Of a stretch of 64,000 bases of DNA, positions 4,525 to 63,995 are shown in pieces. Numbering within the stretch: position 1 is the first letter of the stretch; every line of letters starts with the position of its first letter. Source of the stretch: Botryllus schlosseri (taxonomy: Eukaryota); NCBI GenBank assembly GCA_051294905.1, contig CM119373.1, positions 4,652,001-4,716,000 on the forward strand. Reading direction: 5' to 3'. The notes beneath the pieces were generated by a model. The model saw only the letters and a list, made by a program, of their open reading frames with translations. It did not search any database and was not told the DNA's origin. The position numbers and the translations under genes were made by a program.

Positions 4525-4712
4525 ATTTTCGTGCTGGTGACGTCATATTTTGTGTTACGATTGTTGATATACGCTGTTCTTTCGAATTCTCTACTAGTTG
4601 CTGACGATTAACCCTGACGAGTGTCAGCCGAAAATATTCGGGTTCATTTCAATATGAATATACTATTCAATTGTATATTGAAGTTCTGTACCTCAAAGAA
4701 GCTGTTTAAAGT
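4525..4712 (+). mobile_element. Solo Penelope-like pseudo-LTR fragment
   Basis: Homologous to the pLTR of the PLE remnant (reverse complement of 24245-24390 plus 25686-25735) and to 26070-26172 and 63920-64000. Confidence 0.75.
4600..4645 (+). ncRNA. Minimal type-I hammerhead ribozyme motif, intact core
   Basis: aacc CTGACGA g-tgtcagc-c GAAA atat TC gggtt: core 4614-4620, GAAA 4630-4633, palindromic ATAT stem III, predicted cleavage after C4639; stem I has one mismatch. Confidence 0.75.
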
Positions 4713-5214
4713 CAATCTGTTTTTCCAACTGTATTGTCATAGAAGTTTGTACTGTCGGTGAACGTATCATTTTACATTTTATAGCTTGTTGCCTACTTGA
4801 TAGGATTGCAGTTGTATACAGCAGATTGTCTCCTCATTGTGAACAAAAACGATCAAATGAAAGAAATAGTTTGACCAGGCGTTTGCTCAATGTACCGCAA
4901 TATCCTAACTGAAGCAAAGCTGTGTGAACATTGCTTTTATATCAAGAACCGCTTGAAAAACAATTTTGATGTACACAACATTGTCAGAATGAAGCAACAC
5001 GGTGTATTACAAGCACTGTACGCCCAACTTTAATGTTGCCAGCCAACAGCTGCTGCTGCTGAAGGTTCCTTGTATATGAATGATGATCGGCTATCAGCTC
5101 CATCCATTGTTTCTGTTCAAAAACTCGATTTTGAGGATATTGCCACTGATTTCGCTTTTAAAAGCCCGAAAAGTTCAGTTTCAAGGCGGCTCGTGGCTTT
5201 TTATTCGCCTAATA

Positions 5215-6117
5215 CAGGGGGCCAACCTTTTCGGCCAAAGGGCCACATGAGATTTGCGAGTCATTGCGCCGGTCATCTGGATGTTGAATGTTGATGCCAT
5301 TTCTTTAGTCGTCCGATAGGAGCGACCTGTATTATACGTAGCGATGAAAACACGTCATATATTACTACGCATCCAAATCGATAACAATTATGTCATGAAG
5401 AGTCAGCGTGCATATAGTGCACCCATGAATTAACCGCGCGAAGCGCTAACATTCTTCAAAGTTAATGAATGAGCTCGGCTAATACTAATGTCACTTGCAT
5501 ATATTGCGGGTCGCCTCTGTATGCCGCTGGGCTTGTTCGACAAGGACAGGATTATTTAGCGCGTATACATATGAATATCGAAAATTCCGGCGCAGATGCG
5601 TCTATCATTTTGTGCAAAGATTTCATCCCCTACCATCCTTCTGCAAGTGCAGATGCGAAGTCGGATGTTGGACGACACTTTCTCTCATAATTGAGAGTGT
5701 TGTCAGACCGAATTCGGTAAATTTTCAGGAGCGTTATCAGAATTATGAAATTAAGTGACAATAAATCGGGCTAAGTGCTGAGAGAAATATCAAGTCAAAT
5801 TAATCTACCTCGAAATATTCTACTTCATGGTCATATGCGAAGATCTGCGAAAATTGTGGCTGGCCCCTGGGTACACCAATGCGTCGGAACTGATGCTCAA
5901 GACATCGATAACCCAAATTTTGCGTTCAAGCTAATCAAATGTCTGGTGACATTGCAAATTCACAATAAATTACATACTTTTCTCTGCCCATAGCAGACGA
6001 TATAAATAAATGTAATAAATTACATGGAATATTCATTATTTGACATTACAGCTATTTTATGGAATTATCTCGCGGTCCACTCCAAACCTTCTCGCGGGCC
6101 ATAGGTTGGCCGCCCCG
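5215..6117. mobile_element. hAT-type MITE
   Basis: TIRs cagggggccaacc / ggttggccgccccg; TSD gcctaata/gcataata; left end shared with the 54559 element. Confidence 0.75.
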
Positions 6118-6871
6118 GCATAATACATTCGTTCACCATTTCTTGTCTTCATTCTTTTTCGCCTTTTAAACGCTGAGACGGTGAGGCATCTTTCTCAAGT
6201 AATAATGAACTTATGAGACGCGGCATATGATTTGTAATTATTTTTATTGAAAATATTGCTTGAACATGAAACTATGTCGAAATTTGCTGCGGTCTAGGCT
6301 AACTTAGGGAGGGGGGATTTTTAACGAAAGTCATTGGCGGCAGCACATGTGGCTACGCCACTGCTCGCATTCGCACCGGCCGTAGTGAATTGATATTAGC
6401 GCACTTATATTATTACGTAATCGAAAGCGGATGTAGCGACAGGCATACAGTGCCTAAGCACGTCTGAGTCTGAGACAAGCAGACTAATGTCGCCAAATTG
6501 ACGTTCTGATTTCTTTGTCTGAACATGCATCAGATTTTCGTAATAGCGCAGCGGTCCGCGTAACCCGAGGGGTCCGCGAGACCTTTAAATTTGCAAAAGA
6601 ACTGATACACAATTGATACCTTTTTTAAACTTGCAACAACAGAATAGCCGTTTGAATTGACATATCATATACTGTGCTAACTCATTTTAATTGCCAAGTT
6701 CCTAATAGCCTACGGGTACAAACATATTGCGGTTTAGAGTTATCTGATAATAGTTTTTCCTTATCTGACTCAACAAAGGGGTAAGACCGCGTCACAAAAG
6801 CCATTTTCTCCTGTGATATAGGCCTACATACAACCACTATTCCAGAATATCTTGAAGATGAGCTGCTAGAT

Positions 6872-7993
6872 TAGTGGTTCTCAAACTTTTCAAAGAAATT
6901 CATGAAACGGTCCCTGGGCAATCAAAAAAAGATCACAAAACCAACACAAAACAATGCTTTAGAGTTTATAGTGACAATGTGACATAAATATAGTCAATTG
7001 TTTGAGACTAGCTCGGCTATGTGTGGCTGCGATTTCGAGAACGCAACTCTAATATTGTGAATCACATTCAAACGATTCAAATTCACAGTCAATACCCGAA
7101 AACGGTGGTCATGGCCCTCATATTTTGTTTTCAAACTAATCACTAGGGGACAAGCCCTTCACACCCCTCTCACCTTTACTTGTGATTTCATAACTGCCCT
7201 TTATACATTCTATTCACAAACGATATTACGCGATTCACGGACCAACCTAAATTACTAACGGCAAACGCAAGGCTTATTGATTTATTTCTATATGGGCTTA
7301 GTAAGCACCAACCAGTGTTATGAAAATCAGCGTGCAGCTAATTTCTTGTCGCGCGAACCGCGAGGTTTTTCCAATTTAAGGAATAGATTCTGCACCAAAA
7401 TACTCTATTTTAGCCTGATTAATGATATAATGTTGGGCAATTATCGGGTTTAGTTCGAAAATGAGTTGCCTGATTTTTTTTATATTACCTTTTTTCTGGA
7501 TCGTGTGATTTTTGTAGAACTTGCTTCGCGGACCAAGAAAATTGTATCGCAGATCCCAAAAGGACCGTGGAACTAGGCTTACCATATTTTGGAAATCTGA
7601 AAAGAGGACACTTTTTCAGAAATTTGCAAGTTGCAAAACCGGAGTAGAATTCTCAAAAAACGGTGAATTTCTCCCACTTTGTGATCGGTTGACTAAAACA
7701 AAAGGTCATCTATCCCGCTCAGAGCTCAAAAGACCGTTTTTCTCTCCACATTGTCAGGTGGATGATTGAAAAAAAAAGGTCATCTTTTCGCTCAGAGCTG
7801 AAGTCACCGTTTTTCACTCCGAAATACCCGCCGGAGCTTCACTTCTGTGCTAATTTGCGGTATATCACACGCAATTTGCTCTAAATCTGACCTAAATTTT
7901 CAAAAAAGAGGACAAAATCTCAAAAAAGAGGACAAATCCTCTTAAAAGAGGACGTATGGTAAGCCTACGTGGAACTCAGTTTGAGAACCACTG
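6872..7993. mobile_element. hAT-type MITE nested in 6549-8411
   Basis: TIRs tagtggttctcaaact / agtttgagaaccactg; perfect 8-bp TSD tgctagat. Confidence 0.85.
7574..7967. mobile_element. hAT-type MITE (TAGG family) nested in 6872-7993
   Basis: TIRs taggcttaccata / tatggtaagccta; perfect TSD cgtggaac; gaggac subterminal repeats. Confidence 0.9.
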
Positions 7994-22700: not shown

Positions 22701-25700
22701 TTCGAGCCTGCACCAAAGGTTGAGGAGTATATAAACTATATTCGAAATCAAAATCAATAAAACAAAAGGCTTGGTTAAGGTAAAAACAGAGAACAGAAAT
22801 AGATAATTTTCTATTATATTACTTTACTGCTCGTTTACAACAACGTAAGCTGTAAGGTTCGATCACTTCGTTTGTGGTCAATTTATTTGTGTAGCCTCAG
22901 CAAAACGCACCATCTCTCCCGAGTTACACCAGCCTTCCGCGAAAAATCCTAACATATGCAAGATACAGTGATTTTCATCGATACTGTTTAATTTATGACT
23001 TGGAAATTAACTCGGGAATTTTCCTTCGAGTCACGAGTCAATCCACATTTCTGATACGCCGAGTCAAGACATGTCAAGTTATGTTAGCAAAGTGACTCGA
23101 GTAAAAGTCAAGTCATGCAAAAAATGTGATTCGAGTCATCCCAACATTGCTTTGTACATCGCATATATACTTTTCAGAGCAGGGGTTCTCGAACTTGGGG
23201 CGTGAAAGCATCTGTAGGAGGCGCGAAGCCGAAGTTTGATGAATTTTTTTTTTCGCGCTCGGCATGATCTATCCCAAGCTTATACTTGTTGCACTGGTTG
23301 CACTGTGTATTGTCTGACTTTTATAATTCAGAATTCTCTCATCAACAGCCATAACCTTTCATGCCACCAGACCATCTATTGGGATTGCTAGCATAGCGGT
23401 TGAACCGATAATATTTTGTGATATCAAGTTAAGGGGGCACGAAATTTGTCACTATAATAAAGGGAGGCGTACCTAAGAAATTTGAGAATCACTGTTTGAG
23501 AGTCTTAATGAAAGAACGTAGATGGGGATTTAAAGAAAGTTAAAATGTATCATGTTTAACATTTTCTCGAATCACGAGGGCAAATGTATATTTTGTTAAT
23601 TAACCGTCACTTTCTCATTACTTTAAATCAACACATTCACTGAGCAACATTTATTAAAAATGTAGTGAAGAAATATAATTAAAACACGCTGGAGAATACA
23701 CGCTGGGGGCGTGTCTAGAAAAGTTTGAAACCGCGGCTATAGGTTTTTGTCACTTTTTTCCGTGATAAGCTTTACATCCTAAAAGGCCTTTCCATTTTCC
23801 CTTCAGTATCATGCCTTGCCTTAAGCCGGAATATATCGAATAAAGATTTAAAGTGAATTATGGGCTTATTGTAATAATTAACGGCAGAATGGACACAAAT
23901 AATAGCGATTGTTCGTTACTCTTTAGTTCTACGTTTTCTTTCTTTCCGACATGCAACCAGAGTTCAAAGAACTTTTTCACCACTTTGATCGACCACGGAT
24001 GTCTCACATTCACTTCAAGAGTTATTGAAGTAGCCTACAGAACGTCAATATATTCATTGAATACTGTTTTGGTCTGTATGCTTTAATCTTGAAGTTTACT
24101 TTAAATACGATTAATCCTTGTATAAGTGGATAAATGCTCGATGTATATATAGATTCAGGATTCAGACCCGCCAATTATTTCATTTTCCGATATCCGGCCC
24201 GCCGGCTGGAGTAGTTTCCCTCCCCTGTCATATGGTATTTTATTTAAAGAGCTTTTTGAAGGTACAGAACTTCAATATACAATTGAATAGTATATTCCCA
24301 TTGCAATGAACCCGAATATTTTCGACTGACACTCGTCAGGGGTAATCGTCACCAAAGCAACTACTAGTAGAGAATGGGAACGAACATTGTAATACAGACT
24401 TGGACAACTAGAAAATTGTCAGCTTTTCCAAGTTAGATTAGAATTAGAATTAGAGCTACAGAAGCTGTTCCAAATTAGATTAGAATTAGAATAAGAGTTA
24501 CATAATTTTTCCGAATTAGATTAGAATTAGAATTAGGGCTACAGAGATTTTTCCAAATAAGATTAGAATTAGAATTGTAGCTACGCATTTTTTTCCAAAT
24601 TTGATTAAAATTAGAATTAGAATTAATTCGCTAAAATTTTGAATTTGACTGAAATTGTGAATGAGAAATACATACAGCAAAAATCGAGTTCGGTTCTCAT
24701 CCAATTACAATGCATTCTCATACGCATGAGAACGGTTAACGTATGTAAGTGTCGTGATGACTCGAGTCATGACTGGACTCGAGTCACTTTTCCGAATGAC
24801 TTGACATGACTCGAGTCACTTGGCCAAAATGACTGGACTTGACTCGGCGTTTCAAAAATGCATATTCACTCGTGACTCGGAGCAAAATTTACGAGTAAAT
24901 TTTAAATCATCAAATAATTTGTGTCGATCAAAATCGCGGTATCTTTCATATATTCGAATTGTTCTCGATACGCTGGTGTGACCTGTGAGAGTGACCAATT
25001 TCATTCGTTCAATGATTTCCCGTTTTACTGAGCCTCCATTGTCCTATCACAAATATATTAACCCCAAACGACGTGATTGGAGCTTACAGCATACATTTTC
25101 GGTAAAGTAAGAAAGCAATAAAATAGCAAACTATCCATCTCTGTTCTGAGGACTATGGTCATTGGTGCCCGGTGCTCAACTTAACGCCTAATCAAACCTC
25201 TTGTATGATTTAAATTGAATCTGAAACAATCATCATCTTTTCGCTTGATGTAGTTGAGGGCATGGAATTGAACAATCTGTTAACTATCTCTCTTTCTTCG
25301 CTGCTGTGCTGTTTGTGATCGAAACTAGAATGTTGTTCGCAGACTACCTGCTACTATGCGAGCATGGCTATTATTCGTCACAATAACTACTATGATTGTA
25401 CTTGTGCAGTGTAAGTAATGCGATGGAGGCTTGGCACTGGATTTTCCGGCGCGAGAAGGATATTATCGTTAACTCGCTGCAAAATGCCGCGAACAAAGAG
25501 GCATTTTCAGGAAAAGAAAAAATAGATTAGAACTAAAATTATAGTATAGAAACATTTCACAAATCAGATTAGAATTGGAATTGGAGCATATGAATAATTC
25601 ACAAGTTAGATTAGAATTAGATTACTGGCATTTTGTTCTGATTCAGAGAAATTAGATAATATAAATATCTAGTTGTCCAAGTCTGCATTGTATATCAACA

Positions 25701-28700
25701 ATCGTATCACAAAATATGACGTCACCAGCATGAAATGAGATCTCAAATAAGAAAGCGTTCAGTGTACTATTTTAAGATGGTACACGAACTCCTTTTGTAA
25801 ACGAAGCATGGGCTGATGTATTTTAATGAAGGTCGACTTCAAGGCACTCAGATAAAAGTGTGAGCGGCTCCTCCCGATGACGCGAAAACTGTCATCTCGA
25901 TAGTTTCTCGCACAGTGGGATTACCCAATATAGATGCTTGCCAATGGCAAGATTTATGGCCTTCGAACGCTCAGCCTCAAGCTTCAGCGAATAAGTAAAG
26001 GTTGGGCTTTAACCGAGGGTGATGCACGTGCTCTGATAAATCTAGAGACATGCTCTGATGCTGGCTAATGTGTTCCTGCGTTCCAATTCTCTACTATAGT
26101 TGCTGATGTTTACTATTGACGAGTGTCAGCCGAAAATAATCGGGTTCATTTCAATATGAATATACTATTCTATCGTATAGTAATTTATGAAGACCGTATC
26201 ATGATGAGTGATCCCATTTCCAAAACTTCACTACCAATGATTTATGTTATGCCACTAAGCCTCATAGCGTACGCGTACACTTTTTCAGAGTCGCGTTGTT
26301 ATTCTACGTCTGCATAACTGACGGAATGTTCCGGCGAATGCTCGTTATGTTGACCGAATGGTTATACACTACAGATGCCAATAGCCTGGAACAACTGACG
26401 GAATTTCTTCGGGGTCAGAATGGTTCAATTACTTCCATTGCAACTAATGTTGTGAAGGATGAGCTGTCAACTGCAGCAGCGACTACTGCCATGGTTTCGA
26501 CAACGATAGATTACAAGTTGACAGCACCGACTTCGCAGAGCACAAATGCATCAGGTAACTGAAATACGTCATAGCGAAGTAATCGGAAAGCATAAATGAG
26601 TGTTGGTATTTAGGATTGAATCTCAACATTACCATGTTCATTCCAATTTTCATGCCCATGGGTAGTCGAAGTTTAGAGCGGTGAGAATCAAAAGCAAGTA
26701 AACGTACTCCCGAATTCAAAACGCCCCACAAGTAGAGAGGAAGATATTTTTAAATCACACCAAAACTACTACAGGAGTAGCAGAATAAAAATGCGTTGCT
26801 TCTGGAATTCAATACAAATAAGCAGATTGAAGTCGTAGATGGAGACGAGACTTGTCAGACTTTCGTTACTCGATTGCTGGTGAAAGGTAACATATTTACT
26901 ATGGAGGGTATGAGCTCGAGGTTCACGTTCGCTTTCATTATAACATCTTTGGTTGAAATTCTTTGCATTTGAGCTTCGAACTTCGAATCACTCTGAGCAT
27001 GGAACAGGCAGCATGTAAATGTGAACGCTGAACAATAGGGTTACCATATTTTGGAAGTATGAAAAGAGTACACTTTTCAAAATTTCGAGACTTGAAAAAC
27101 CCGAAATAAATCCTCGGAAATTGGTAAATTTTTCCCACTTCGTAGTCGGTTGAATGCAAAATTAGAACAATAGGTTAACTTTCAGCTTCAACTCCCGAAG
27201 TTCAGTTTTTCTTTCGCATTATTGGCTGGTTGATTAAGAAATAAATTCAAAAAAGGTCAACCTTCCGGCTCAGCTCCGGAAATACCCGCCGGAGCTTTAC
27301 TTCAGTGCTCTCAACTAGGAAGACAAAATTTCAAAAAAGAAGACATTTGGGAGTCCTCCGAGGATACTTTCAAAAAAGTAAAAAGAGGACAAATCCTCTT
27401 AAAAGAGGACGTATGGTAACCCTACTAAACGAGCATGCACCGTGCCAATCTCAAAAATCTTACTTGCTTTGTTACAAAAGTTTGCTCGAAACATTTTGCT
27501 TTCCGTTTGTGAATATCTCGCGACTCTCTGTTGTGAACTTGACCCGCAGTCACACAACACCAAGAACGAAATACACTATGCACAGGCCGTGTTATTTTTG
27601 GCATATGCCAAAACTGCCAAAAATAACTTATTTTTGGCATTTTTCGATTTTTATTTTTGGCAGTTTTGGCATCGTCATCTAGATAGATAGTTTCAGCCTC
27701 GAATTAGTCACAAAAACGCTTTATTTGGGCTAGTTTTTCAAAAGACACCACAAAATGTGCAGCATCCACGTATAATCAGTGCCAACAAACAATAAGAAGA
27801 AAAAACCTAACGATTTCATAGGTTAATAATATCAAACGAAACCACAAAATGTGCAGTATCCATCCGACTCGGTGCCAATAAGCAAAAAAAAAGAAAGAAA
27901 AGTCTAACAAACACGCTCAACAGCTGATTGTTACAGGTGTTGAATAGACTTAAATCGTTAGCACTGTAACAGTGCTTCCAAACTCTGGTCAGCTAAGTTT
28001 CTCCTAAATTCATTTCTCGCCCAGCGAATCTTGGAAATATCGGCTTCAACAGTAGCCATTGAAGGAAAGAATGTTGCCAGTCATCCACAAAAGGTTTTCA
28101 GAGCTTCAAAATCTTTGGAGGGCCAAACCGGCTTCCATGCATCATGAAAAGAGATCATTTCGCCAGTGCCATCGATCTCATCCCGGAAAGAATTTTCTTC
28201 CCGATCCTTTTCCAGGAGTTTCCTGTGTTGTCTCTCAACACATTCTATTTAGTAGCCCGACTATCATTTCTCCTTCAGTCTACCGATATATTTTCGGAGG
28301 ACTTTTGTCACTTCAGGTGGCTTTAATATTATTTGTTGCGTCACAATGTTCAACTCGATCACAATGCAAAAATCGTGGTTGATTTTGGGGGTTCCAGCTC
28401 CATAAGCAGAATATAATTTATATTTTAATAATCAGTACTGCGGCAGCTTCTCATTGATACCCGTTTTGTCAAATTTAGTGCTCGACAAGCCGGTCAAAAA
28501 TGGTCGTAAAATCGCTTTTGGACAAATGGAAAGTATGACGTAAACCAAATGCAGTCAGCCGTTCAATCACGCTGTGCCCACACCATTTAGGACACCATGC
28601 TTTCACCCCTAATGGGTGGGCTGGACCTAGATTAAGAAACCTGCCTTTCACAAACGCTCTTCTCGCTTGTAACGCGGTCCAGTTAACACAACACCATGAA

Positions 28701-34700: not shown

Positions 34701-37700
34701 TCTGGCTACCGTGCTTCCAAACATTTCGCGGTAAATCGAGGTTTTTATTTTTTACAGTGTACGCTTTTTTCCACGCTACTTATCAGCTACATTGGGTATA
34801 CTGTTTAGTGCGTCGCATTATTTGGACTAAACGCGCGAAGCGCGAAAAATGTATATAGTTCGTGTTTGAATCGGTAAATATGATCGGGAATTGCATATAT
34901 TTTGTTTTAAATTTTTTATCCCCTCTCTGCTCACGCAATCAGATTTACTGGTAAAGCTGAGTGAGGTGTGTTGGAAAAGGTGATGGCTGGTGGTACCTCA
35001 AGGGTGGTATATTGACTTCATTACATCATGCTATTTCGTGACCTATATCTGCTATGTCAAAAGATATGAAAATCGCCCAAACTGAAAAGCACACACGATT
35101 TCAAATTGGTAATGCTTTACTGGCAAATAATTTATTCCTATACGGGATGGCATTTGCGCTGTGGGGTTCAGATCGCCAGGACAGGAACATTCGGTCCCAA
35201 TCATTTAGCCGCACATGGACAAATAAACACTTATGTATATTGTATATATATCGAAGATTTCGGTCACTACAAGGCAATTCCTTCTCGGCCAAGGTATTCT
35301 CGCTGCTGATCGTTCTGACGCACTTCTCGGAGTTGCATGTTACTTGGGCTTGGTGCGTCGTGGCGCAGTAATGGCCGACGCCGAAGTCTCCATTTCTATA
35401 AATTCTACGTATTTTCGTGGGGGAAAGTTACCGAATAAACAGATATTCGGCAATATTAAATCGTGCTCCCAGAGCGAAAATTTTTTGATAAAGTGGCATA
35501 AATTTAAAAAAAAACTTTATATTTATGTTATTTCACGAAAAAAGTTTGGGCCTCTTCGAGATCGCCCCCCTCCAATGGGGGTTCAGGGTGCGGCAGTTAC
35601 GGTCCTGCTCCTCACTATACCCAGCACTTTTGTCATCACAGAGCGGCTATCTGCTGGTTTGACTACACAAGACACACAACTCACCAGTACGCAAGACAAT
35701 CGCATTTAACTGCAACATAAAACGTATTGTGAACCGATACGAGTAACGCTCAAAATTTCGCGAAAACGTTATTTCACGTCAAACTAGTCGTGCTGGATGC
35801 GTTTGTGACGCCATGATTGGCCATCCAGAGTTAAAAATGAGGTTTTGTGAATAACACGCAATATCATTTTCGATACATACATTCCAGAGCAGGTAACTGG
35901 TAGCGGTAATTGCTAGGGATGGTGTGAACGTGAGGTTCGCGTTCGCGTTCTGTATGTGAACCTCGGAAATTTAGAGGTTCGCGTTCACAACAGAACCTTG
36001 ATAGGTTCTGCACTGTGAACCTTTTTCATATATTACAATTATAACATCTTTGGTTCACATTTATTGCATTTCAACTGCGGGCCGCTGTGTGGATAGCGCT
36101 GGTAGCATTAAAAATCAACACTAAACGAGCATGCACTTTGACAATCTCAAAAGTTTTACTTGCTTTGTTACAAAAGTTTGCTCGAAATATCCAGCTTTCC
36201 GTTTGTGAATATTTAGTGACTCTCTGATGTGAGCTTGACTCGCAATCACACAACATCACGAGCGAAATACGTAGTCAGCTCATGAATGCTTATGAACCAA
36301 TCAATAAGATTGATATCGTTTTCTGATGTAAAAATTCGAGAAGGCGTACGGGGTCAATCTTGACTCAATATCCGTGCGATTGAGGGGTCGGCTACTGGTG
36401 TATAACTTCTTAATGGAGTAATATCGGTAACAAGTATAGTAACACAATGTAGCAATACTCATACGCCGAATACATTGCCTGGTCTGGCCTAGACCGTTAA
36501 GGGGTAAGCGTATATTCCCTGATAAGTCCTCGTCGAAATTGTTGGCAAAGCGACGGAAGATATTGATTTTATGGGAGTATTATATACTTTGATTGCCTCA
36601 GTTGATACATTTGGCGACGTTTAAAACGCATTAGCATTGTTGCATTATGTGACCCAAGTCGTCGCTAGGTATCGTGTACAACTGTACATTAATATAGGCT
36701 ATCACTTCATTGAAAGATATGGTTAGAATTAGCAATATAACGTCACGTGACGTCATGAGGTTCACATTCGCGTTCACACAGAACCTTTCAAAAAGGTTCG
36801 CGTTCACACGAACCTGAACCTTTCAGAGGTTCACACCATCCCTAGTAATTGCGCATGTGTCTCCGTGAATATGTTGACTGTCCTGTATATAATTTTGAAC
36901 AAATTCGTCTATTCCCCACCAGAAATCATTGAATTCCCCACCAGTGGGGAACTCCCCGCCGTTTTGGAACCACTGAGTTAAGGCGTAAGCTTACAGGTCC
37001 TCGTCGAAATCGTTGGCAAATCGACGAAATATATTGATGTTATGGGAATATTATAGCATTTGATTGCCCCAGCTGATACATTTGGTGACGTTAAAAAGTC
37101 AACGCATGTTCTTCAGCATTGTAACATAATGTGACCTGAGTCGTCGCTAGGTATCGTGCATAATAATATATCGCTTCAGTCAAATGTTGGGTTGGAATTA
37201 GCAATATGACGTCACGCGGTCACATGAACCTGGCCGTTTGATGAGTTCACACCATCCCTAATAGTCCTGTAAAAACGTTGTATGCCCGTTGCTTATGACT
37301 TTGCTCACAGCATGCCCATTGCCCAATCCCGTACGAACTGGCAGTCGTCAATGCGAGATAATCAATGCAGATGAAATGGGAAACTAATTCTTGGCCACAG
37401 CCAGTTTCTTCAGAAATCCACCGGAATGGAGCTGCAGCTACATGAAAATTTCAACTATCCTTCTTATTTGCTAATTGAATTAATAGTGTTCAATGGTGGC
37501 GCGGCTGTGAGTCTCAGAGTCTACTTGACCCGTTGCGATTTTGCGAAATTGCTGAAACTACGTCTTCGCGACTAACGCAAAATAGCTAATGACACTTCTG
37601 AGATGTTCCAGTTACTGAGATATATTTAGTTTCCCTTATATAAAACAGCTACATTGCCAGGTTAGTAGAGCAGTTTCACTTGTCAATGTGATGAAAGCTT

Positions 37701-38587
37701 ATTTCAAACTACTTTCCAATTTTCGTAATCCAAAGGCGTGAAAAAGTAGTTCCACCAAACAAACTATCAAGGATTAGTCTATTATTCTTAATATATAACA
37801 ATTTCAGTTAGTAATACAAAAGTTACTTAAGCTCTTCGCAAAACCAGAAGGACGCCGTTACTGACCACTTATATGTTTTTGAATTTACCCAGTCTAAATG
37901 AACAATCCTTCTGCCACTATCATTTTGATTACAGCATGCGCCATTCCTCGTTTCACCTTTAAGGATGCATACCACCTCGATTACATCCGCTACAGCGGCA
38001 CTGTACCGGATATGGCATCATTTAGTGTATGCTTCTGGATTCGATCTGCCTTATCGTCGTCAGAACAACAGGCCATCGTCAGCTATTGTGTACCTTGTGA
38101 CTCCGACTGCAATACCTTTATGATCTGGTTGCAAAACAAGAACATCAAAGTGTCTTTCAAATCAGCAAGCCATAGTAGCAATTGTGTAGTCGGGAACGGC
38201 AATATTTACCACTATCGTACCCATATGTGCGTCGTTAAATCAGGAACCTCATTGTTTTTGTACACTAACGCATCGTGTCATAAGTGCAAGAATAAAGCTC
38301 CAGCAACATTGAACGGTGGTGGCGTCTTAATCTTGGGTCAGAATTTGGATGGCGGAGAAGGCGAATCTGCACCGGAACCGGAGCATGAAGAGCAAGGATT
38401 TCGCGGTGATATCGGAGGATTTCAACTGTGGAATAAATCTTTCAGCGATGATGAAGTTACTGATGTATATCAGTCTGGGGAATGTGCTTGTCCGGGCGGC
38501 ACGGGACTGATTGTTTCGTTGAATAAGTCAAACTCAGTAGCAAAAAGGAATGCATCAGTCGCCAATTGGAGCGCTACTTGCCCGTGA
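16682..38587 (+). CDS. Gene B: predicted secreted 312-aa protein with signal peptide, Ser/Thr-rich stalk and C-terminal pentraxin domain
   Basis: join(16682-16730,18444-18490,18639-18648,26375-26554,37935-38587) = 939 nt, all GT-AG, in frame to TGA. The first four exons have paralogs in genes C and/or D. Confidence 0.75.
17362..17756. mobile_element. hAT-type MITE (TAGGG family) in gene B intron 1
   Basis: tacggttac ... ggtgacccta; TSD atctaagt/gtctaagt; not seen in the gene D paralogous intron. Confidence 0.8.
18444..18490 (+). CDS. Gene B exon 2 (GHRSSSGCEYHKKLHL)
   Basis: ttcattcag acceptor, ttg|gtaagc donor; paralogs at 45851 and 62279. Confidence 0.8.
18639..18648 (+). CDS. Gene B exon 3, 10-nt micro-exon
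   Basis: ttgcag|GATCTTTCGG|gtgaga; bridges phase 0 to phase 1; present in three paralogs. Confidence 0.75.
19983..21344 (+). mobile_element. hAT-type element with (tttggca) arrays and a transposase remnant
   Basis: TIRs caggccgtgttatttttggca / tgccaaaaataacacgtcctg; perfect TSD cccataaa; inverted sister copy at 27583-28832. Confidence 0.9.
20555..20975 (+). pseudogene. Decayed C-terminal part of a hAT-like transposase
   Basis: Manual translation across stops and frameshifts: LPRTLPCELV...IECVERQHRKLL...FHDVWK...LKTFCG*LATFFPSAATVEADISKIRWARNEFRRNLADLSLEALLQCKRL, resembling a hAT dimerization region. Confidence 0.65.
21629..23149. mobile_element. hAT-type MITE with (caagt/ctcgagt) arrays
   Basis: Ends caacattgggat / atcccaacattg; perfect TSD ctttgtac; uninterrupted copy at 31976-32956. 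Confidence 0.9.
21942..22558. mobile_element. Near-perfect ~600-bp foldback MITE with 3-bp AAT TSD (PIF/Harbinger-like)
   Basis: 21955-~22250 is the reverse complement of ~22260-22558; termini AGGG...CCCT; the empty site in the sister element near 32290 implies TSD aat. Confidence 0.85.
23180..23494. mobile_element. Old hAT-type MITE carried inside its host element (also at 47424-47732)
   Basis: caggggttctcgaact / tttgagaatcactg; TSD tttcagag/tttgagag. Confidence 0.75.
24308..24352 (-). ncRNA. Minimal type-I hammerhead ribozyme motif, intact core
   Basis: Reverse complement reads accc CTGACGA g-tgtcagt-c GAAA atat TC gggt, with a 4-bp stem I. Confidence 0.8.
24395..25685. mobile_element. 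MITE with (agaatt)n arrays inserted in the PLE pLTR; contains a reversed fragment of the (caagt) family at ~24755-25200
   Basis: 17-bp perfect TIRs cagacttggacaactag / ctagttgtccaagtctg; flanks cattgtaata/cattgtata. Confidence 0.85.
26102..26146 (+). ncRNA. Degenerate hammerhead motif (C3 changed to U, stem I disrupted)
   Basis: acta TTGACGA gtgtcagcc GAAA ataa TC gggtt. Confidence 0.6.
26375..26554 (+). CDS. Gene B exon 4 (DANSLEQLTEFLRGQNG plus Ser/Thr-rich stalk)
   Basis: ctacag acceptor, cag|gtaact donor, 180 nt, phase 1-1; N-terminal part homologous to the exon at 58380. Confidence 0.8.
27036..27424. mobile_element. hAT-type MITE (TAGGGTTACCATA family)
   Basis: TIRs tagggttaccata / tatggtaacccta; TSD ctgaacaa/ctaaacga. 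Confidence 0.85.
27583..28832 (-). mobile_element. hAT-type element, inverted sister of 19983-21344
   Basis: TIRs caggccgtgttatttttggca / tgccaaaaataacacggcctg; perfect TSD actatgca. Confidence 0.9.
30456..33802. mobile_element. hAT-type element, level 4, with internal ~200-bp tandem units (~30880-31560)
   Basis: 14-bp TIRs cagtggcggctcgt / acgagccgccactg; perfect TSD gatactag. Confidence 0.9.
31976..32956. mobile_element. hAT-type MITE with (caagt) arrays, level 5
   Basis: TIRs cagtgttgggat / atcccaacactg; perfect TSD tgtcacag. Confidence 0.9.
35914..36844. mobile_element. Intact hAT-type MITE with (gttcac/gttcgc) arrays
   Basis: 16-bp TIRs tagggatggtgtgaac / gttcacaccatcccta; perfect TSD gtaattgc. 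Confidence 0.9.
37935..38587 (+). CDS. Gene B terminal exon, pentraxin domain
   Basis: ttacag acceptor (phase 1); motifs SFSVCFWIRS, AIVSY, HMC, GGGVLILGQNLD, FRGDIGGFQLW; paralog of 3032-3702. Confidence 0.88.
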
Positions 38588-38785
38588 AATTGTTCTACAG
38601 CTGCAATCGATTGTGGACAAGCCGTCGATTAACGAGTATACCTTAACGTTAACATATAACTCAAGTAATGCAAAATTTAGTTGTGCTCTTTTAAAAACTA
38701 GAAGGACACCGTTACTGACCACATATGTTTTTGAATTCATTCAGTCGAAATGAACAATCCTGTGCCATTATCATTTCCATTACAG

Positions 38786-39076
38786 CATGTGCCATCCTTC
38801 GTTTCACCTTTAATGATGCATACCACCTTGATCACATCCGTTACAGAGGCACCGTACCGGATATGGTGTCATTTGGTGTATGCTTCTGGATTCGATCAAA
38901 TTCATCGTCGTCGGAACAACAGGCCATCGTCAGCTATTGTGTACCTGGTAACCACGCCTGCAATACCTTTGTGATCTGGGGTTACAAAACATTCACATCC
39001 AAGTGTCTTTCAAATCGGGGTTACTGTCGCAAAATGAAATGCATCAGTCGCCGATTGGAGCGCCACTTGCCCGTGA
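38786..39076 (+). pseudogene. Decayed tandem duplicate of the gene B pentraxin exon
   Basis: Closely matches 37935-38165, has a 2-nt insertion near 38980, then jumps to the equivalent of ~38540 (about 370 nt deleted); acceptor and flanks are also duplicated (~38640-39135). Confidence 0.85.
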
Positions 39077-43063: not shown

Positions 43064-46000
43064 ATGATGGATGGAACAATTGAAGGACTCTGCAAATTTG
43101 CAGCTTTAATATTTTGCTCCACAGGTATGTATTTTGTGTTAGCAAAGGTATATTTGAGTGATTTGAAGCAGCCAGGTATTCAGGTTGTTAAGTAAAATCT
43201 ACGTTTATACGGGATAGTTTAGAGCCCTCATATTCGTAATAATGGTCAGGATGCGTGTGTTGATGACGAAACGCGGTTGCATGCACTTCCTTGCACAATG
43301 ATTTAACGGGGCAACCGGCTCTAATATGATGCGGTCTCAAATTTGAGATAAAATCAGGAATAAACTTTTGGCTGCAGCTGAGTCCGGGATGTCGCATCAT
43401 GTCGATGCGAAGTCAGTGACGCATCACATATTGTCCACGCACTACTAAAAGAAGTGGGACTACAAGATGTCGGTGCTCCAGTAATTTCGCAATCGCAACT
43501 AGCCGCCACAACAGCATGCAGATTTACTTTCAAGCTAGAGTAGAATGGCGTGTTTCGGAAAAAGGATATAGCTGCAGTTCCATTGCGATGGCTTTCTGAA
43601 GAAAATGGCGTCGCCCAAAATGCATTCCCGATTTTATCTTTAATTCGAGTTCACGTGATATTCAGAGTGCAGTGACCTTTGAACTGTCATGTACCTTCAC
43701 AGAATTAGGAAGTCTAGCATTCGAATAAATGAGCAACTGTGACTAGGCCTACATATTCAAATTTATTCCAGAAGCTTTTCGGCTGATACTGATCAAGGGA
43801 TACCGTCACCAATAATGCGAGCAATCAAATAACTATGCTCAACAACAATTATTATCGCTAACTATGACGTCATAAGGAGTTAATGGAAAGTTCGAAAAAC
43901 GAGAGTACAGTAGCGCAGGACCGGAGATAGCGAAACAGAACAAGTTAATCCGCAATTTTCAAATGATACACAAATTTTTTCTGTTGGCATAGAATAGGTT
44001 GACTCATAGTGATGATGGTGGACTCAAGAACAGACAAATGAAATAAATGGCGACCATTGTTCAATATACAGAACGTTGCCCCATGATTATTAGCAGCCCA
44101 CGTATGATTTTCTAGTAAATGTATGCGGATGCGGATAGAAGGCTTTTGATCCATGGCCTGGTTGTGTTCGAGAACAAGCAGATTGTTTTGCTGCGATTTC
44201 CAGATAAAAGTTTTGACAGACGGTTGGATGGTTTCTTTGATAAGGCACTGCAACCGTTTGAAAGTTCTCCCTGCGTACCGACAATGGCAGTGGCTCCTGA
44301 ATTCATCAATGACGTTACTTTGTCGTAAAACGGGGAGAACAGCCTTTCGAGTTGCAGCAAACATTGGTATCGTGGTGAAAATAACATTGGCTTCCACCGC
44401 TGGATAACAGCGGTAGACTGCTGAAGTTGAATGTTTCTCAAATCGATCCAAGGAAGATGGATGTACAGTTGTACACATCTCTACTTTCACGAGAAACTTC
44501 TTCGGAAGTTTCGTTAGGTTTCGTATCATACGACTGACGTAACTTATTATTCATTGTCCGCTTGATGACATCCATCTGGGTATCCGTTGTCAGTGAAAAT
44601 TGTGCGGATATACTCAAGTTTACAATTCAAGATATACTCATAATAAGTCGTCAACGCCCGGTGGACCATGCAAGTTGCCGATAAATTGATTTTACGACTT
44701 TGTGGACTAAAAGAGTTCCATCGGAGGTAATGAACTGCCAATGTGGGCCTCCTGTAAGCAGAGGTTAGGAATTGACAGTTCCTTTTCCCCACCAGATTCC
44801 AGAACGTCAAGGAATGCCAGGCGGTTAGTAATTTGAATGCTCGCAAATCGCAATATGGCTGACGCCATCCCCTGATGAGTGTCAGACGACGAGCTTCGGG
44901 AAAAATATGTATATATTATTCAAATGTGTCATAAAGTTCTGTACGACAAAGCGTCTCAATATGTCAGTCGCAATGCCATTAATGACAAAAAAATGCAATT
45001 TCTCGTGTTGAACATTGATTCGATATGGATGAAGGCGACGATGCTGAGCCACATCATTTTAGATGCCGCCATACTGTTTACCTAGGACGTGCTATCTGAC
45101 CAGCTACATGAAAACGCTTCACAAACAGGGTGGCACTGACTAGAGTTGTAAATTGACTTGATGAGCAATTTTTTGATGACTCGTGGTCATTCACATTGTG
45201 TATTGACTCAATTTTCCTTTCCGTTGACGATAAATTTAGTGAAACACTATACCTGCGCAGTTCTGTTGGTGATTAGCATAGAGCAGGGCTGTAATGACCC
45301 GACTCGAGTCAGACTCGAGTCACGATTTACTGATGACTCGACTTGACTCCGGTCATTTTCCCAAAATACGGAAATGAATCAACTCGACTCGAGAAAATGT
45401 GTGTATTGACTCGACTTGGACTCGAGACTCAGACGGCCAAGAGCGACGTTTCATTATAATTTCGAAGAGTAGTAAAGTATAACCACCCTATTGGGAGTTC
45501 GTCTATTGGTAAAGGTACTTGAAAATGCCACCAGAAACTATCATAAGTGAGGAAAATTAGTAGCCTATATTATAATTGTGAATCCTTCGATATCAACAAA
45601 CATACTTATAACTGTGGGTTTAACAAGACATTGTCTGGAAACGGAGCAGTCAACACAACTCGAACCTCTGCTCGCTGACTTGGACTCGGACTTGACTCCT
45701 TGGCGAATTGAAAATGACTTGACTGGACTCGATTCAAAACTAAAAAAAAGTGAAATTGACTTGTGACTCGGAGCCTTGTGACTTGGTTACAACCCTGGTA
45801 CAGAGTACATCATCATGACAAGCTTGATTTGTGACTTCTTTATTTCACAGGTCAGATCGTTATATCAGAAGACCACAAGTATCGCAAAACATTCCACATT
45901 GTACGTATGTTGATTGATGCCGATTGAAAAATCATATACATTCTCAAAGCATGCTGCAAATTTATTAACAAATTTCATTCACCATATTACACTGTCTATT

Positions 46001-49000: not shown

Positions 49001-52000
49001 ATTGAATGAGTTGAGGGAAGATATAATAGTTTGTTCATTTCAAAATTTAGCAGTGAGCTTATATCAGGAAATAGCAACATCGTTTTTGTTTTAAACTCAC
49101 AAATTTATACAATAAAATTTAGGCGATATACCGATCTACCGTATAAAGTTTGATCTAAAATTCTAATATCGTTTTGCACGGTATCGAGATAATATGATTC
49201 AAAATTACCGTAATGCAACGCCTCAGTTATTTGCGCGGCGATCCCACGAAATCAGCTGTGTTTCCGCGGGAACCAAATTGAAGCGGCAAACACCTTTCAA
49301 CCACCGAGTTTTATAAACACAGATGACCTAATGGTTCGACTTACATCTTACCATCATATTCGATCAACTTCTACTCTGAACTCAATAATGATAGTTATAA
49401 TATTCATTTAGTGAATGTAGGAAGTGGCACGCACACAAAGCGAAGATCTTAATATCTGATGCTGATTGATCAACCGGGTCGGTTACGCTTTAGTGACTCA
49501 GAAATCGAGGATCGAAAGCGAGAAGCGGAAAGGGAAAGATGGCGAATATGTCTTGCAGTTTTACTATGATGCGAATTTCTTATCCTCACTGCACAGGGCA
49601 ATAGTTGTACGCTTTAGAATATGATTCCTGTTCATCCTGTTAAGGGATGCGTTATGAACGCATTCTATTCTCGCTGGCCTATACCGGTTACGATATTTGC
49701 TCTATCTGACGGTCGGACGCCATATTGGATATTACGTTACGTGAAGAAATTGAAGGTGAGACGATAATGCACTCATGAGTGTATTTTGCATGCTTCTAAT
49801 TTGCCTTTTCAAATTTGCATGCTTGAGTTAGAGTCATTGAGTCAGATTTGTTCGGTTGAATTATATAGTTGATAACAAGAAGTTACTGCAATTCAATGTC
49901 ATTTTCTAGTATGAAACCATGCTGGTATATCCAGTATGGAATTGGTGTCGGAAGCACACTTGATTGGTCGTCTGGCAGGCTGAATATCACTATCATGAAA
50001 ATTCGACTGGTTTACCAAGTCACCGTAAAAGCTATAAATTATATCTGCTCCAGCCATAGCAGTCACCACAGACCCCTGATTGGAATCGCTAGCCTTTTTG
50101 CCTGATATATCAGGGGAGCAGCGATGATTTAACTTGCTTCCTTACCAACGAAAAAGACATTGGCCGCATATTCCAGGAATTCAACAAATTCGAAAGAGCA
50201 ACAGGACAGAAACTAAATGCGGAAAAAAACGAAATCTTGCATATCAACCAGAATAAGTGTTCGAGCCGAAACCCGATTTACGATAATAAGAAAAAACGAA
50301 GCATAAAAATATTAGGTCAACACTATGGAAAAAATCAGATTGAAGAAACCTGGAGCGAGAAAATTGCGAAAATCAAACGAACACTATATGGCTACCGTGA
50401 TAGAAAACTGACATGGGTAGGAAAGCTTACTATCCTGAACTCCCTGGCATCAAGCCAGATCATATATAATGCGAGGGTAATAACAGCACCCAGAGAATTA
50501 AAAAAAGAGCTAGAAAAGCTATATTACAACTTCTTATGGCACCCCCAAAAGATGGAAGCAATAGCCAGACGAACGCTTATTGCAGAAAAAAAGAGAGGGG
50601 GGGTCGCAATGCCGGACGTGGAATCAAAGTTCAAAGCGTGTGAACTTGAAAAAATTGTCGCGCTGAAAAAATTGGATCAACCGAAGGAGATATGGCATCA
50701 ACATGCCATATACGAAATCGGAACAAAATTGAAACAAATTAACCCCGTGCTCTATAATAACTCTGAGCCGCATAAATTCCCGACACCCAAAAACTGGGTG
50801 GAAAACCTGGAATTAACAAAAAAAATAAAACTCACAAACGATGAATGGGAAGTCGCATCTCACAAAACGCTATACAAAGAAGTCAAGAAACTGAAAGAAA
50901 ACAATCCAAATATTAGAACAAAAAACGGAGACGAAATCAACTGGAATAAAATTTGGCAATCGAAACATGTGGGACATAAAGTAATAACCAACGAGGAAAT
51001 AATTATAAACTACAAAGTAGTCCACGAAGGATTCATATTTGGGGCAAAACGGAAAAGCAGAAACTTGACCCATGACAAAGATAATAAACCGCTCAACCTT
51101 AATTGCAAATTTTGCAATAACGAAAAAGATGACATAAGACACATACTAACAGAATGTAAATATACAAACGAAATTAAACTCCATGTTGAAAGAGCGCTCG
51201 GAATAACAATAATCGAAAATAACATACTCTACAACCATAAAACGGCGAAATTAATGTGGATAATACTATCCATATTAAAGAAGGTTGTGATAAAATTCAA
51301 AATAGCTCTAGATATTGATAATAGAAAAGCAGGAGAGGAAAAAATTGGAAGAAAGATCCTGGAAAAATTCATTACCAGAATGAAAAGAGTACCAGAAAAT
51401 GAAAACATCAGCGAAATTATCGCAAAAACTGACGGATACCTACAAATTCTGTAGAAATTTTTAAAAGTAAAACCATTGAGATTACAGTGGGGGGAGTAAA
51501 ACATGAGTATAGCAGTAAAATAGAGAAGTTAAAAAGAATGAGAGAAACCGTTTTATCAAGTTGAACCATTTAATCACCTAAGTTGGAAAATATAAAAAAC
51601 AAACTAAAAAAAAAAAAAAAAGAAAGTGTAATCAAGACCCCGAGCGCGAGACAGCCCTACACATACGAGAGGGCTGCCGAACGCCGGCGGATACGGGGAG
51701 CCGTATAAAAAAAAAAAAAAAAAGGAGCAGCGATGATTTTCCAAGTTAAAGTAATTTAATAAAAAATAATTAGAAAAATAAATATAGTGTGAGCACAGGA
51801 CGCCGATTCCAAACAGGCACAGACCTTGGTAATGTAAATATCGTCATTTCTGCATGAGAGTGTGGGCATCGTGCTATTATATTTCATGTGTATGAATGCG
51901 AGTGCGCGCGATAAAATTATAAAACATAAATTGAAATTATATGTACGGTATTGAAATTATTTAGCCTAAGCAATAAATATGTTGGCAGACAGCCAAAAGA

Positions 52001-62485: not shown

Positions 62486-63565
62486 GTGAGAATGTATTTG
62501 CTTGCATCGATCCACAATAGCGGAATCCAGTATCCGAATGTATTGTTGACGATACCGAGTTGCTGAAACGCAACGAAATTCGTCGATTAAACATAAGTTA
62601 CGGTGATGTATTATTGATATATTACCACTTCAAGCTAAACATTCGTATAATATACGATGTGCGTTACGGCTACGTCATATATGATCTGTGAGAAATGTTG
62701 TTGCTTCAAGGTTTATTAGACATTCGTCTTGACGAATCGGCGGTATGCTTTCTTTTCTCGCCTATGCAGCTGATTTAACGCTTGGTTCAGATAGCACCCA
62801 TACATATCAGTTTATTGTGTGGTACACTATACCTTGATAGTTTATTGATACGAACATAACATAAGATCCTTACGCGCAGGACTGCAGAACACGACTGACT
62901 ATCGTCGGTTGCTCGACGCGTTAGAACACAATGTAGTAAGCCAGTAACTGTTATCAAGTAAAAATATTGTCCAATGACAATACAGATGACATTGAAAAGT
63001 GAATTTCTACTGAATTATGTGTACATGAAATTGACTTCTGCTCAAATTAAATATCGCATTGTTGTAATGTAAATAAGTAATCGAGATGTTTGACTATATC
63101 TTTCGCCACTACCCCAACTTTCCCAGTCTTATCAGTTTGAAATCTTTTCAATCTAATGTTCAAGAGGAGTGCAGTTATACCCAATCCTATATGCTATGTA
63201 AAGACCGATTTCAATACATTAATCATGACAAGATGATTTCACTGTTCTGACTGAGACTTAATAACAATCTTGTTCAAAGCAAATGATCAAATTTGTGATG
63301 ACAACGATTTTACTAACAATATTGTCCATGTGCCTATATGTATGGATAACGATACATTGTTATATTCGACATCACACCCTCCGTAGGTTGTATGGTATTT
63401 TATCAAGAACATATAATGAAGAATGATTCCAATTTCATAACTTCACTGCCGCCGCATATGTAATATATATATATACATGATGTGACGCCAAGCCTCACAT
63501 GGTATGAATACTCTTCGTCAGAGTCAAAGACAACGATATTAGTTATTATTTTCAATGGAATGAAG

Positions 63566-63700
63566 CAGGGCTATGAAGCAGCCGTAAATTTTAAGTGCTC
63601 GAGCTCCAGCTCCGGAGCTTTCTTCTATCATAGATTAGCTGAAGCTCCAGCTCCGGAGCCGCATTATTACCACTGCTCCGGCTTCGGCTCCGGCTCTGAA
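63566..63700. mobile_element. Left end of a MITE with (gctcc(a/g)) arrays
   Basis: cagggct start followed by gctccagctccggagc and ggctccggctc repeats; no right end seen. Confidence 0.5.
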
Positions 63701-63949
63701 AATTATCGAATGGGTCTGTCTATATAAGGGGTGACCAAGCCGCGGCCCGCGGGCTGGATGTGGCCCGCGAGGTAATTTCCTATTATATCATCGAAGTCCT
63801 GCTATATTATCGAAAATGAATTGCTGTGTGAACTTGCAAGGCCAACCAAACATTACAAGTCTTGCTGCGACACTTTGGATGTTGATGACTAAAATATCAG
63901 TTCCGACGCATTGGCAGATTACAATTAAATAGTATATTCATATTGAAAT

Positions 63950-63995
63950 GAACCCGAATATTTTCGGCTGACACTCGTCAGGAGTAATCGTCAGC
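63950..63995 (-). ncRNA. Minimal type-I hammerhead ribozyme motif, intact core, in a pLTR cut by the window edge
   Basis: Reverse complement reads gctgacgatt actc CTGACGA g-tgtcagc-c GAAA atat TC gggt; stem I has 4 bp including one G-U. Confidence 0.8.

Follow-up and report, generated by a model that had tools for sequence, protein, structure and literature searches.

Minimal hammerhead ribozymes (HHRs) have been described in the pseudo-long terminal repeats (pseudo-LTRs) of Penelope-like elements (PLEs) of metazoans (Cervera and de la Pena 2014, PMC4209133; this and the other papers are cited for individual passages, and statements about them hold for these passages). As the prediction from the DNA sequence which we follow up here (the original prediction) had stated, these are type I hammerheads with a palindromic helix III and are thought to act as dimers. 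A 2017 paper (Lunse et al., as cited by PMC6765202 and PMC6466107) likewise describes association with PLEs, a stem III that is palindromic and extremely short, and dimers as the active form. According to a review from the group of Cervera and de la Pena, hammerheads of PLEs as a rule do without the tertiary interactions characteristic of this ribozyme (PMC6155905). Among hammerheads at large, pseudoknots between stems I and II occur in ∼40%, in all three types (Perreault et al. 2011, PMC3088659), and in a type II hammerhead from a metagenome which was tested in that study and has a stem II of one pair, a pseudoknot of six pairs is essential for fast cleavage. The hallmarks given for PLEs include a single ORF with RT and GIY-YIG endonuclease, inverted partners, 5′ truncation, pseudo-LTRs formed by partial tandems, and an optional tail of 30–40 bp (PMC8557442, PMC11167929). 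Here we analyze a stretch of 64 kb of the Botryllus schlosseri genome (assembly GCA_051294905.1, contig CM119373.1, positions 4,652,001–4,716,000; in the following the window). It contains six hammerhead motifs, and we consider it highly probable that these are HHR sequences within terminal pieces of 5′-truncated PLEs.

Both strands of the window were searched with the 26 nt pattern CTGANGAGN7CGAAAN4TC. Exact matches are present at 4614–4639 (+), 24314–24339 (−), and 63956–63981 (−). One site matches with a single mismatch (26116–26141 (+), C3 to U) and two sites with two mismatches (43771–43796 (−), C3 to U and G8 to C; 44872–44897 (+), GAAA to GACG). The layout is the same at all six sites, namely CUGAnGA, G, a loop of 7 nt, C, GAAA, a 4-mer, UC, and the 3′ strand of stem I. 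With up to two mismatches the window holds seven matches compared to a mean of 0.37 in shuffled sequence, and none of 100 shuffles reached seven. The seventh match (36519–36544 (+), two mismatches) is without PLE context in the similarity search and falls below the E 10 level with the covariance model described next; we take it as a chance match, as about 0.4 matches with two mismatches are expected per window by chance. The covariance model was built from 69 rows which include the first, second, and sixth site (copies 1, 2, and 6 in order of position), and copies 3, 4, and 5 were left out. On the window it finds the six sites only, with 39–70 bits, and the next match has 12.8 bits (E 0.21). 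The held-out copies 3, 4, and 5 reach 49.6, 41.9, and 39.2 bits (E 2e-12 to 3e-9). Since the covariance model recovers exactly these six sites, the original prediction, which had located six motifs of this layout, neither missed nor invented any.

The core of a type I hammerhead (C3-U4-G5-A6-N7-G8-A9...G12-A13-A14-A15.1...U16.1-H17, in this order) is exact in copies 1, 2, and 6, so that the three cores which had been named as intact, near 4.6, 24.3, and 63.9 kb, are indeed intact; it is broken by one or two changes in copies 3, 4, and 5. The pair G10.1–C11.1 is found in all six copies, and copies 3–5 were selected without demanding it. The palindrome AAUAUU or AAGCUU is kept in five copies and broken in copy 3 (AUAA), so the palindromic 4-mer ascribed to all six copies holds for five of them. 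By the palindrome the copies belong to family A (AUAU; copies 1, 2, 3, and 6) and family B (AGCU; copies 4 and 5). The insertions are as follows:

4527–4710 (+), copy 1, 3′ terminal piece of a family-A PLE, 184 bp, 97.3% identity to the full-length natural copy L035
24241–24386 (−), copy 2, 3′ part (hammerhead and tail) of an old family-A insertion, 84% identity, core at 24314–24339
25690–26058 (−), 5′ part of the copy 2 insertion, residues 762–857 of the open reading frame (ORF) and 3′ untranslated region (UTR) to ∼40 nt before the hammerhead
26081–26179 (+), copy 3, inverted 5′-truncated partner, head to head with the 26058 end, 49.6 bits
43763–44816 (−), copy 4, 5′-truncated PLE of the second family (AGCU type), 41.9 bits
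44855–44951 (+), copy 5, inverted partner of copy 4, head to head, 39.2 bits
63919–64000 (−), copy 6, family-A 3′ piece of 135 bp which extends 53 bp beyond the window end, located by the model and by similarity search

Copy 1 runs from the last part of the 3′ UTR through the hammerhead to codon 19 of the ORF, the optional tail included. The part at 25690–26058 matches the family-A ORF with 50.5% identity (tblastn, E 1e-21). Positions 2506–2856 of the element unit match there and positions from 2859 onwards match at 24386; as positions 2856 and 2859 adjoin, this part and copy 2 are contiguous in the element and represent one insertion. Copy 3 has its hammerhead at 26116–26141 and the short 3′ end without tail, as has copy 6. 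In copy 4 a remnant of the ORF is present at 43954–44816 with a frameshift near 44445 (tblastn to residues 569–855 of family A, 44–49% identity, E 9e-54), and copy 5 shows 71.7% identity to the family-A unit over 99 bp. Thus, the six copies go back to four insertion events, with copies 2 and 3 and copies 4 and 5 each forming one head-to-head inverted pair. No copy in the window stands in tandem and no intact copy has a partner on the same strand nearby.

The old copy 2 insertion is split by ∼1.3 kb of unrelated sequence (24387–25689), which contains a 42/83-bp tandem repeat at 24424–24621, repeats of 32–33 bp at 24771–24846, and related short repeats at 25523–25668.

The same motif is abundant in the whole 495.5-Mb Botryllus schlosseri assembly. 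The exact pattern has 7008 matches (3521 + 3487) and the reversed control pattern none (0 + 0), which corresponds to about one exact motif per 71 kb. The palindrome is AGCT in 528 of the 7008 matches, and among the first 100 matches listed 88 have ATAT or AGCT. A unit of 146 bp around copy 1 yielded at least 1696 first-look candidates, 40 of which were scored and gave 42 matches with 93–100% identity. When 30 loci were fetched, they turned out to share a common 3′ end, whereas the 5′ ends lie at many points and the homology extends from ∼150 bp to >1200 bp upstream; many of these loci have an inverted partial copy directly upstream. The longer copies enter an ORF of 501 aa with the motif YVDD which ends ∼100 nt before the HHR. 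The ORF of the element is recognized as a reverse transcriptase (RT; Pfam RVT_1, 32.2–32.6 bits, with 32.6 bits for the 501-aa ORF, cut-off 29.6), and C-terminal to the RT, at residues 726–753, GIY-YIG scores 20.6 bits (E 5.5e-4), just under its cut-off of 22.6. The GIY-YIG-like region has the motif VVYEFKC..C.GYVGRT, which we take to be a signature of the PLE endonuclease. A genome search with the 501-aa ORF gave 88 matches from 86 scored of 9051 candidates; several of them have open frames of 857–863 aa and some are in tandem, 2683 bp apart. Its neighbors in a protein atlas are animal RT clusters, one of which has GIY-YIG in 27% of its members.

Where the open frame is full-length, the unit consists of an ORF of 845 codons and a spacer of ∼145 nt which holds the HHR, and partial tandems form the pseudo-LTR. 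In tandem copies the HHR is situated between the stop of one frame and the ATG of the next. In L035 the HHR is found at 413–439 with C439 as its last nucleotide, the ATG at 454, the stop at 2991, and the element end near 3157. A second HHR follows ∼100 nt after the stop, so that the hammerhead spacer flanks both ends of the ORF. The cut site precedes the ATG by 14 nt (family A), 10 nt (family B), or, in a third family (C), 21 nt. Every insertion ends with UTR, HHR, and the first ORF codons, with or without a tail of 33–37 bp. The sequence behind the ribozyme therefore encodes the start of the ORF in every insertion, and in copy 1 it translates to HFNMN.LFNCILKFC.... The 3′ ends lie at the equivalents of window positions 4673–4677 (copies 3 and 6, and L035) or at ∼4710 (copies 1 and 2 and most matches of the 146-bp unit). 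The difference of 33–37 bp is consistent with the published PLE tail. Between the family-A unit and the element of copies 4 and 5 the sole match at the DNA level is the HHR with the ORF-start stretch, and the ORF matches as protein only (44–49%). The PLE origin proposed in the original prediction is thus borne out: the flanks match a family with a single ORF of RT and C-terminal GIY-YIG-like domain, and the hallmarks are all present, namely the pseudo-LTRs, the 5′ truncation, the inverted upstream partner, and the optional tail.

One could also suppose that the window copies belong to a non-autonomous hammerhead retroelement, similar to animal retrozymes or to short interspersed nuclear elements. 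The copies are short (99–184 bp), very numerous, and start near the ribozyme, a tandem array with a period of 534 bp and one hammerhead per unit exists elsewhere in the genome, and animal retrozymes are argued to derive from PLE pseudo-LTRs (2026 preprint, 10.64898/2026.07.22.740005). Nevertheless, copies 1, 2, and 6 are collinear with the 3′ UTR and ORF start of the autonomous element at 84–97% identity, the 5′ ends form a continuous series that reaches into the ORF (150 bp to >1200 bp) with no fixed boundary, and copy 4 and the 25690–26058 piece carry remnants of the ORF. In addition, tandem copies are absent from the window, and its ribozymes are minimal and differ from the canonical type I form described for retrozymes (PMC7229834). 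We therefore think that this explanation is improbable and that the copies are pieces of 5′-truncated PLEs. The tandem array itself is located at L008:741–2343 with hammerheads at 1011, 1545, and 2079. Each unit combines 351 bp of PLE 3′ end, hammerhead included, with ∼183 bp that are unrelated; among each other the units are 98–99% alike. This layout is retrozyme-like and would set ribozymes of the same strand 534 nt apart.

The structure of the motif is best described on copy 1, for which the parts of the predicted hammerhead are:

4600–4643 (+), hammerhead of copy 1, from sequence reading, pattern, and covariance model
4600–4605 (+), putative pseudoknot box GCUGAC
4610–4613 (+), stem I 5′ strand AACC
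4614–4620 (+), CUGACGA, followed by G10.1 at 4621
4622–4628 (+), loop UGUCAGC, followed by C11.1 at 4629
4630–4633 (+), GAAA, followed by AUAU at 4634–4637
4638–4639 (+), U16.1–C17, predicted cut after 4639
4640–4643 (+), stem I 3′ strand GGGU; the ORF ATG follows at 4654–4656

The cut after C4639 expected in the original prediction agrees with this assignment, as C4639 is position C17. Stem I of the first subfamily had been given as ACCC/GGGU; this is perfect in copy 2 only, whereas copy 1 (AACC/GGGU) has an A·G mismatch, copy 6 (ACUC/GGGU) a G·U pair, and copy 3 has lost the stem in addition to its U3 and AUAA changes. For the second subfamily, UCCC/GGGA is kept in copy 5 together with the palindrome AGCU (the GAAA of this copy being GACG), but copy 4, which has U3 and C8 in its core, shows UCCC/UGGA with one mismatch. 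The pseudoknot described below is perfect in copies 1 and 6, and in copy 2 its box is mutated (GGUGAC against the loop GUCAGU).

For the analysis of covariation 63 distinct rows were aligned; 60 places were fetched from two genome listings and picked for variety of the 26 nt before the flanks were seen. Only rows with an exact match to the core pattern were admitted, which fixes G10.1–C11.1 beforehand, and its count is uninformative in this alignment. In the full structure 86.2% of the cells are paired compared to 19–40% when the partners are slid by 1–3 columns, and the covariation score is 0.351 compared to at most 0.100 after sliding; none of 500 shuffles reaches 0.351. In stem I all five pairs have changed on both sides and 80.2% of the cells are paired, with the variants ACCC/GGGU, UUCCC/GGGAA, CACUG/CAGUG, CACUC/GAGUG, and CGCUA/UAGCG. 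The palindrome pair at columns 41–42 alternates between G–C and U–A. The pseudoknot alone has 84.1% of its cells paired compared to 9–35% after sliding, with double changes in five of its six pairs; the pairings are GCUGAC/GUCAGC, ACUGAC/GUCAGU, ACUGGC/GCCAGU, UCUGGC/GCCAGA, and ACUGGU/ACCAGU, plus G·U intermediates. Hence complementarity is kept between families through changes at three places: in stem I, at the center of the palindrome, and between the upstream box and loop II (its six 3′ bases). The claim that two subfamilies with AUAU and AGCU use different and still paired stems I, and that this is covariation, is confirmed on this alignment.

Covariation thus supports a predicted type I topology with a stem I of 4–6 bp, a helix II of the single pair G10.1–C11.1, a pseudoknot of 6 bp in which six of the seven loop-II nucleotides pair with a box 3–5 nt upstream of stem I, and a putative helix III made of A15.1–U16.1 around the palindromic tetramer. 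A helix II of two pairs was considered and rejected: positions 10.2 and 11.2 pair in just 37 of the 63 rows and also show the combinations U/C, C/C, and A/A, whereas 11.2 has its partner in the upstream box in 54 of 63; as the 10.2/11.2 pairing is inconsistent, helix II is taken as one pair. The pseudoknot would provide the missing strand of helix II and would join stems I and II. One linker base across the 6-bp stem and a link of 3–5 nt to the far end of stem I would fit a parallel arrangement of stems I and II. Tentatively, and as a possibility which we regard with some doubt, we suggest that the motif is a minimal hammerhead with a tertiary structure of its own, having a 1-bp helix II, a 6-bp pseudoknot via the upstream box, a helix III which forms in the dimer only, and a cut 10–21 nt before the ATG. 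If this is true and not yet published, it would be an undescribed architecture of PLE hammerheads, and it would suggest that the ribozyme makes a short uncapped leader for translation of the element protein.

In families A and B the CUGACGA of the core has an identical counterpart 14 nt upstream (4600–4620 in copy 1), and the pseudoknot box belongs to this second copy. Because of the duplication GUCAG of the loop has two possible partners, the box and the core itself. With the core it makes a hairpin of 5 bp, which is the minimum-energy fold, and the alternative pairings could act as a folding switch; this duplication is not present in the GCCAG families. The hairpin of core CUGAC with loop GUCAG was also considered as a conserved inhibitory element and rejected as a general feature, since it is complete in only 26 of 63 rows and missing from the GCCAG families. 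In families A and B it may nevertheless be a competitor of the active fold.

A number of observations weigh against the reading of the motifs as hammerhead ribozymes. Rfam has the hammerhead families Hammerhead_1, Hammerhead_3, Hammerhead_II, HH9, and HH10. The comparison with these models, which had been proposed as a check in the original prediction, was negative: no hammerhead family reaches the gathering score anywhere in the window, and a relaxed search (E up to 10) of the surroundings of copies 1 and 2 gave none either. We attribute this to the minimal forms, which do not fit the Rfam hammerhead models. Folding of the monomers gave neither a hammerhead nor a stability in excess of shuffled sequences, folding of the tail region is likewise without signal (z-scores of monomers and tail −0.33 to −1.18), and the minimum-energy fold of copy 1 consists of two competing hairpins which bury the core and the cut site; nested folding is unable to represent a pseudoknot or a dimer. 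The lineages behind the covariation are few, about 3 to 6, and their related sequences inflate the shuffle control. The silence of Rfam, the monomer folds, which are no better than shuffles, and the unrelated match at 36519, which shows that near-matches arise by chance, would agree with chance matches to a loose descriptor that lack an RNA structure. This explanation is refuted by the reversed-pattern control (7008 matches against 0 in the genome) and by the covariation, of the full structure as well as of the pseudoknot alone: the compensatory changes in stem I, pseudoknot, and palindrome appear in the correct register only. In addition, the association with the PLE end is constant, and we assign practically no probability to chance.

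Other Rfam matches near the motifs were discarded. Tombus_3_IV near copies 1 and 2 (E 4.4) is treated as chance. The family mir-7360 matches antisense to the hairpin of ORF start and tail at 4646–4700 (−) with 23.4 bits and at 24250–24307 (+) with 17.0 bits, below the gathering score of 47, and this probably is a chance likeness to an AU-rich hairpin.

RNA reads of the same species, from one bulk run and two single-cell runs plus one contig run, were compared with positions 1–1500 of L035. The read depth peaks over the ribozyme region, equally on both strands, with ∼146 per strand at the cut site in the bulk run. In the bulk and single-cell reads there is no pile of molecule starts or ends at 439/440; thus, efficient cleavage of transcribed copies is not seen. 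Moreover, 738 of 745 bulk reads continue into unlike sequence and the body of the ORF is almost without depth. The run-on reads and the equal strands indicate that the reads mostly derive from fragments inside other transcripts. The suggestion of the original prediction that the three copies with intact cores may still be catalytic receives no support from these reads, and no window copy has a same-strand partner nearby. Sequence conservation gives a similar picture. The original prediction had named a lack of preferential conservation of the core across genomic copies among the results that would speak against it and, taken narrowly, this is what we find: in 43 young family-A copies the core has minority letters in 8 of 516 cases and the flanks in 64 of 4665 (Fisher p 0.69). 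As the core of young copies is no better kept than the flanks, inserted copies appear to drift neutrally. For dead copies no excess of core conservation is expected, and therefore this null result does not decide on function. Selection is visible only between the active lineages, in the covariation and in the DNA match of HHR and ORF start between families A and B.

Considering the literature and the architecture of the elements, the most likely role of the motif would be the trimming of element transcripts by pairs of ribozymes. Two ribozymes would pair via the 6-nt palindrome AAUAUU or AAGCUU and thereby complete helix III, each of them would cut after C17, and cleavage in active elements would process multimers and read-through transcripts at a point just ahead of the ORF. 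Alternatively, the motif could be kept as an RNA structure and cleavage be weak or incidental. In this case it could serve the element's own RT/endonuclease for recognition or positioning near the start of reverse transcription, or assist the start of translation at the ORF 10–21 nt downstream. Such a role would agree with the missing cleavage signature in the RNA reads and with the fixed place of the motif just before the ATG in three families. It also fits with the weak cleavage in vitro, even as dimers, of the minimal hammerheads of metazoan PLEs (PMC4209133) and with the anole element, where ribozyme mutants left insertion in vitro unchanged (PMC11167929). For the translation version there is a parallel in RNA viruses, in which ribozymes just before ORFs are reported to promote translation, with a cut 7 nt before a start codon; for the ribozymes of non-LTR retrotransposons, too, a role of this kind is cited there (PMC13725137). 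On the other hand, every nucleotide of the catalytic core is kept across families in which stems and pseudoknot have changed, which is hard to explain if shape alone mattered. The translational role in PMC13725137 is itself dependent on cleavage, and in the anole element the cut lies 26 bp after the start codon, so that the position relative to the ATG is not general. Thus, a structure without a cleavage role appears rather unlikely to us, and we prefer trimming as the role in active elements. All six copies in the window are probably dead-on-arrival fragments which drift neutrally.

The surroundings of the motifs had been described as a pentraxin gene cluster. We find two ORFs with a pentaxin domain; otherwise there is just one partial duplicate, which lies ∼200 bp downstream of the second full ORF:

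3001–3702 (+), pentaxin-domain ORF, Pfam Pentaxin E 3.9e-9, Laminin_G_3 E 1.1e-11
37898–38587 (+), second pentaxin-domain ORF, Pfam Pentaxin E 4.9e-11
38779–38979 (+), partial duplicate of a pentaxin-domain ORF, tblastn, 68 aligned residues, 46% identity

An intact copy could have been taken over by the host, for example, for regulation of a neighboring pentaxin-domain gene. Copy 1 is located ∼0.8 kb downstream of the ORF at 3001–3702 on the same strand, and position and strand are all that points to this within the window; elsewhere, hammerheads are found in the 3′ UTRs of rodent Clec2 genes (PMC6155905, figure legend). However, three of the six cores are already broken, the ribozyme of young copies has no excess conservation, and neither a gene model nor transcript evidence ties copy 1 to the pentaxin ORF. 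With one exact motif per 71 kb in the genome, three in a 64-kb window need no special explanation. We therefore hold host use to be very improbable. In a PLE-rich genome of the invertebrate style, motifs of this kind are nothing unusual. The window also contains an ORF of 453 aa at 50093–51454 (+) with weak RVT_1 and zf-RVT matches (E ∼1e-3), probably of the type of long interspersed nuclear elements and unrelated to PLEs, and the region at 48–52 kb has a high AT skew of 0.188.

The motifs of the window are ordinary debris of an abundant and apparently recently amplified retroelement family; nothing suggests that they act on the pentaxin-domain genes or that they have another function for the host. 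Their value lies elsewhere. Three related lineages in one genome represent a natural mutagenesis series for a hammerhead of ∼44 nt (from the box to stem I), whose activity should depend on two separable contacts, the pseudoknot within one RNA and the palindrome between RNAs. In addition, the pseudoknotted variant just before a start codon is a sharper object for testing roles in RNA processing against roles in translation.

When compared with the known systems, the motifs are closest to the minimal HHRs of Cervera and de la Pena (PMC4209133). Both are type I with the core CUGANGA/GAAA/UH, the pair G10.1–C11.1, and a short stem I, and both have no real helix III and instead a palindromic 15.2–16.2 stretch suited to dimers. 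Both are situated in PLE flanking repeats with thousands of mostly solitary copies per genome, some copies are close together on opposite strands, and families within one genome differ by compensatory changes. The minimal HHRs of PLEs, their dimer logic, the thousands of solitary copies, and the close inverted pairs are therefore already in print. The published helix II, however, is larger than usual (6–8 bp) and has an unpaired nucleotide after A9, whereas here it is one pair and the loop pairs upstream. The one-pair helix II is a difference from the published PLE consensus and not from hammerheads in general. Together with the pseudoknot it looks like a variant, which may already be described by Lunse et al. 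(2017). The covariation that supports a pseudoknot between stems I and II also departs from the statement of the review that such interactions usually are missing in PLE hammerheads (PMC6155905). In the papers examined from a literature search on pseudoknots in PLE hammerheads, the term pseudoknot referred to other things, which does not prove that the structure is new to the literature.

Similarities are also seen with PAc, the Poseidon element of the green anole (PMC11167929): its hammerhead lies at the junction of pseudo-LTR and ORF start, it has an optional tail of 30–40 bp, and its cut site is not marked by starts or ends of RNA-seq reads. However, the ribozyme of PAc contains the beginning of the ORF and is cut behind the start codon, in contrast to the elements studied here, in which the cut lies before the ATG. 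As in genomes with animal non-LTR retrozymes, hammerhead repeats here coexist with PLEs (PMC7229834; preprint 10.64898/2026.07.22.740005), but in retrozymes the repeats are short, arranged in tandem, equipped with canonical type I hammerheads, and expressed as circular RNAs, whereas the window copies are solitary or inverted, minimal, and collinear with the autonomous PLE. The pseudoknot itself is a device of bacterial-type hammerheads, where it gives fast cleavage at physiological magnesium. The example tested by Perreault et al. (PMC3088659) is of type II with a normal helix III, whereas the hammerhead proposed here would be of type I and the partner of its loop would be the 5′ flank of stem I. 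As helix III is reduced to a palindrome, both dimerization and the pseudoknot would be needed in this case.

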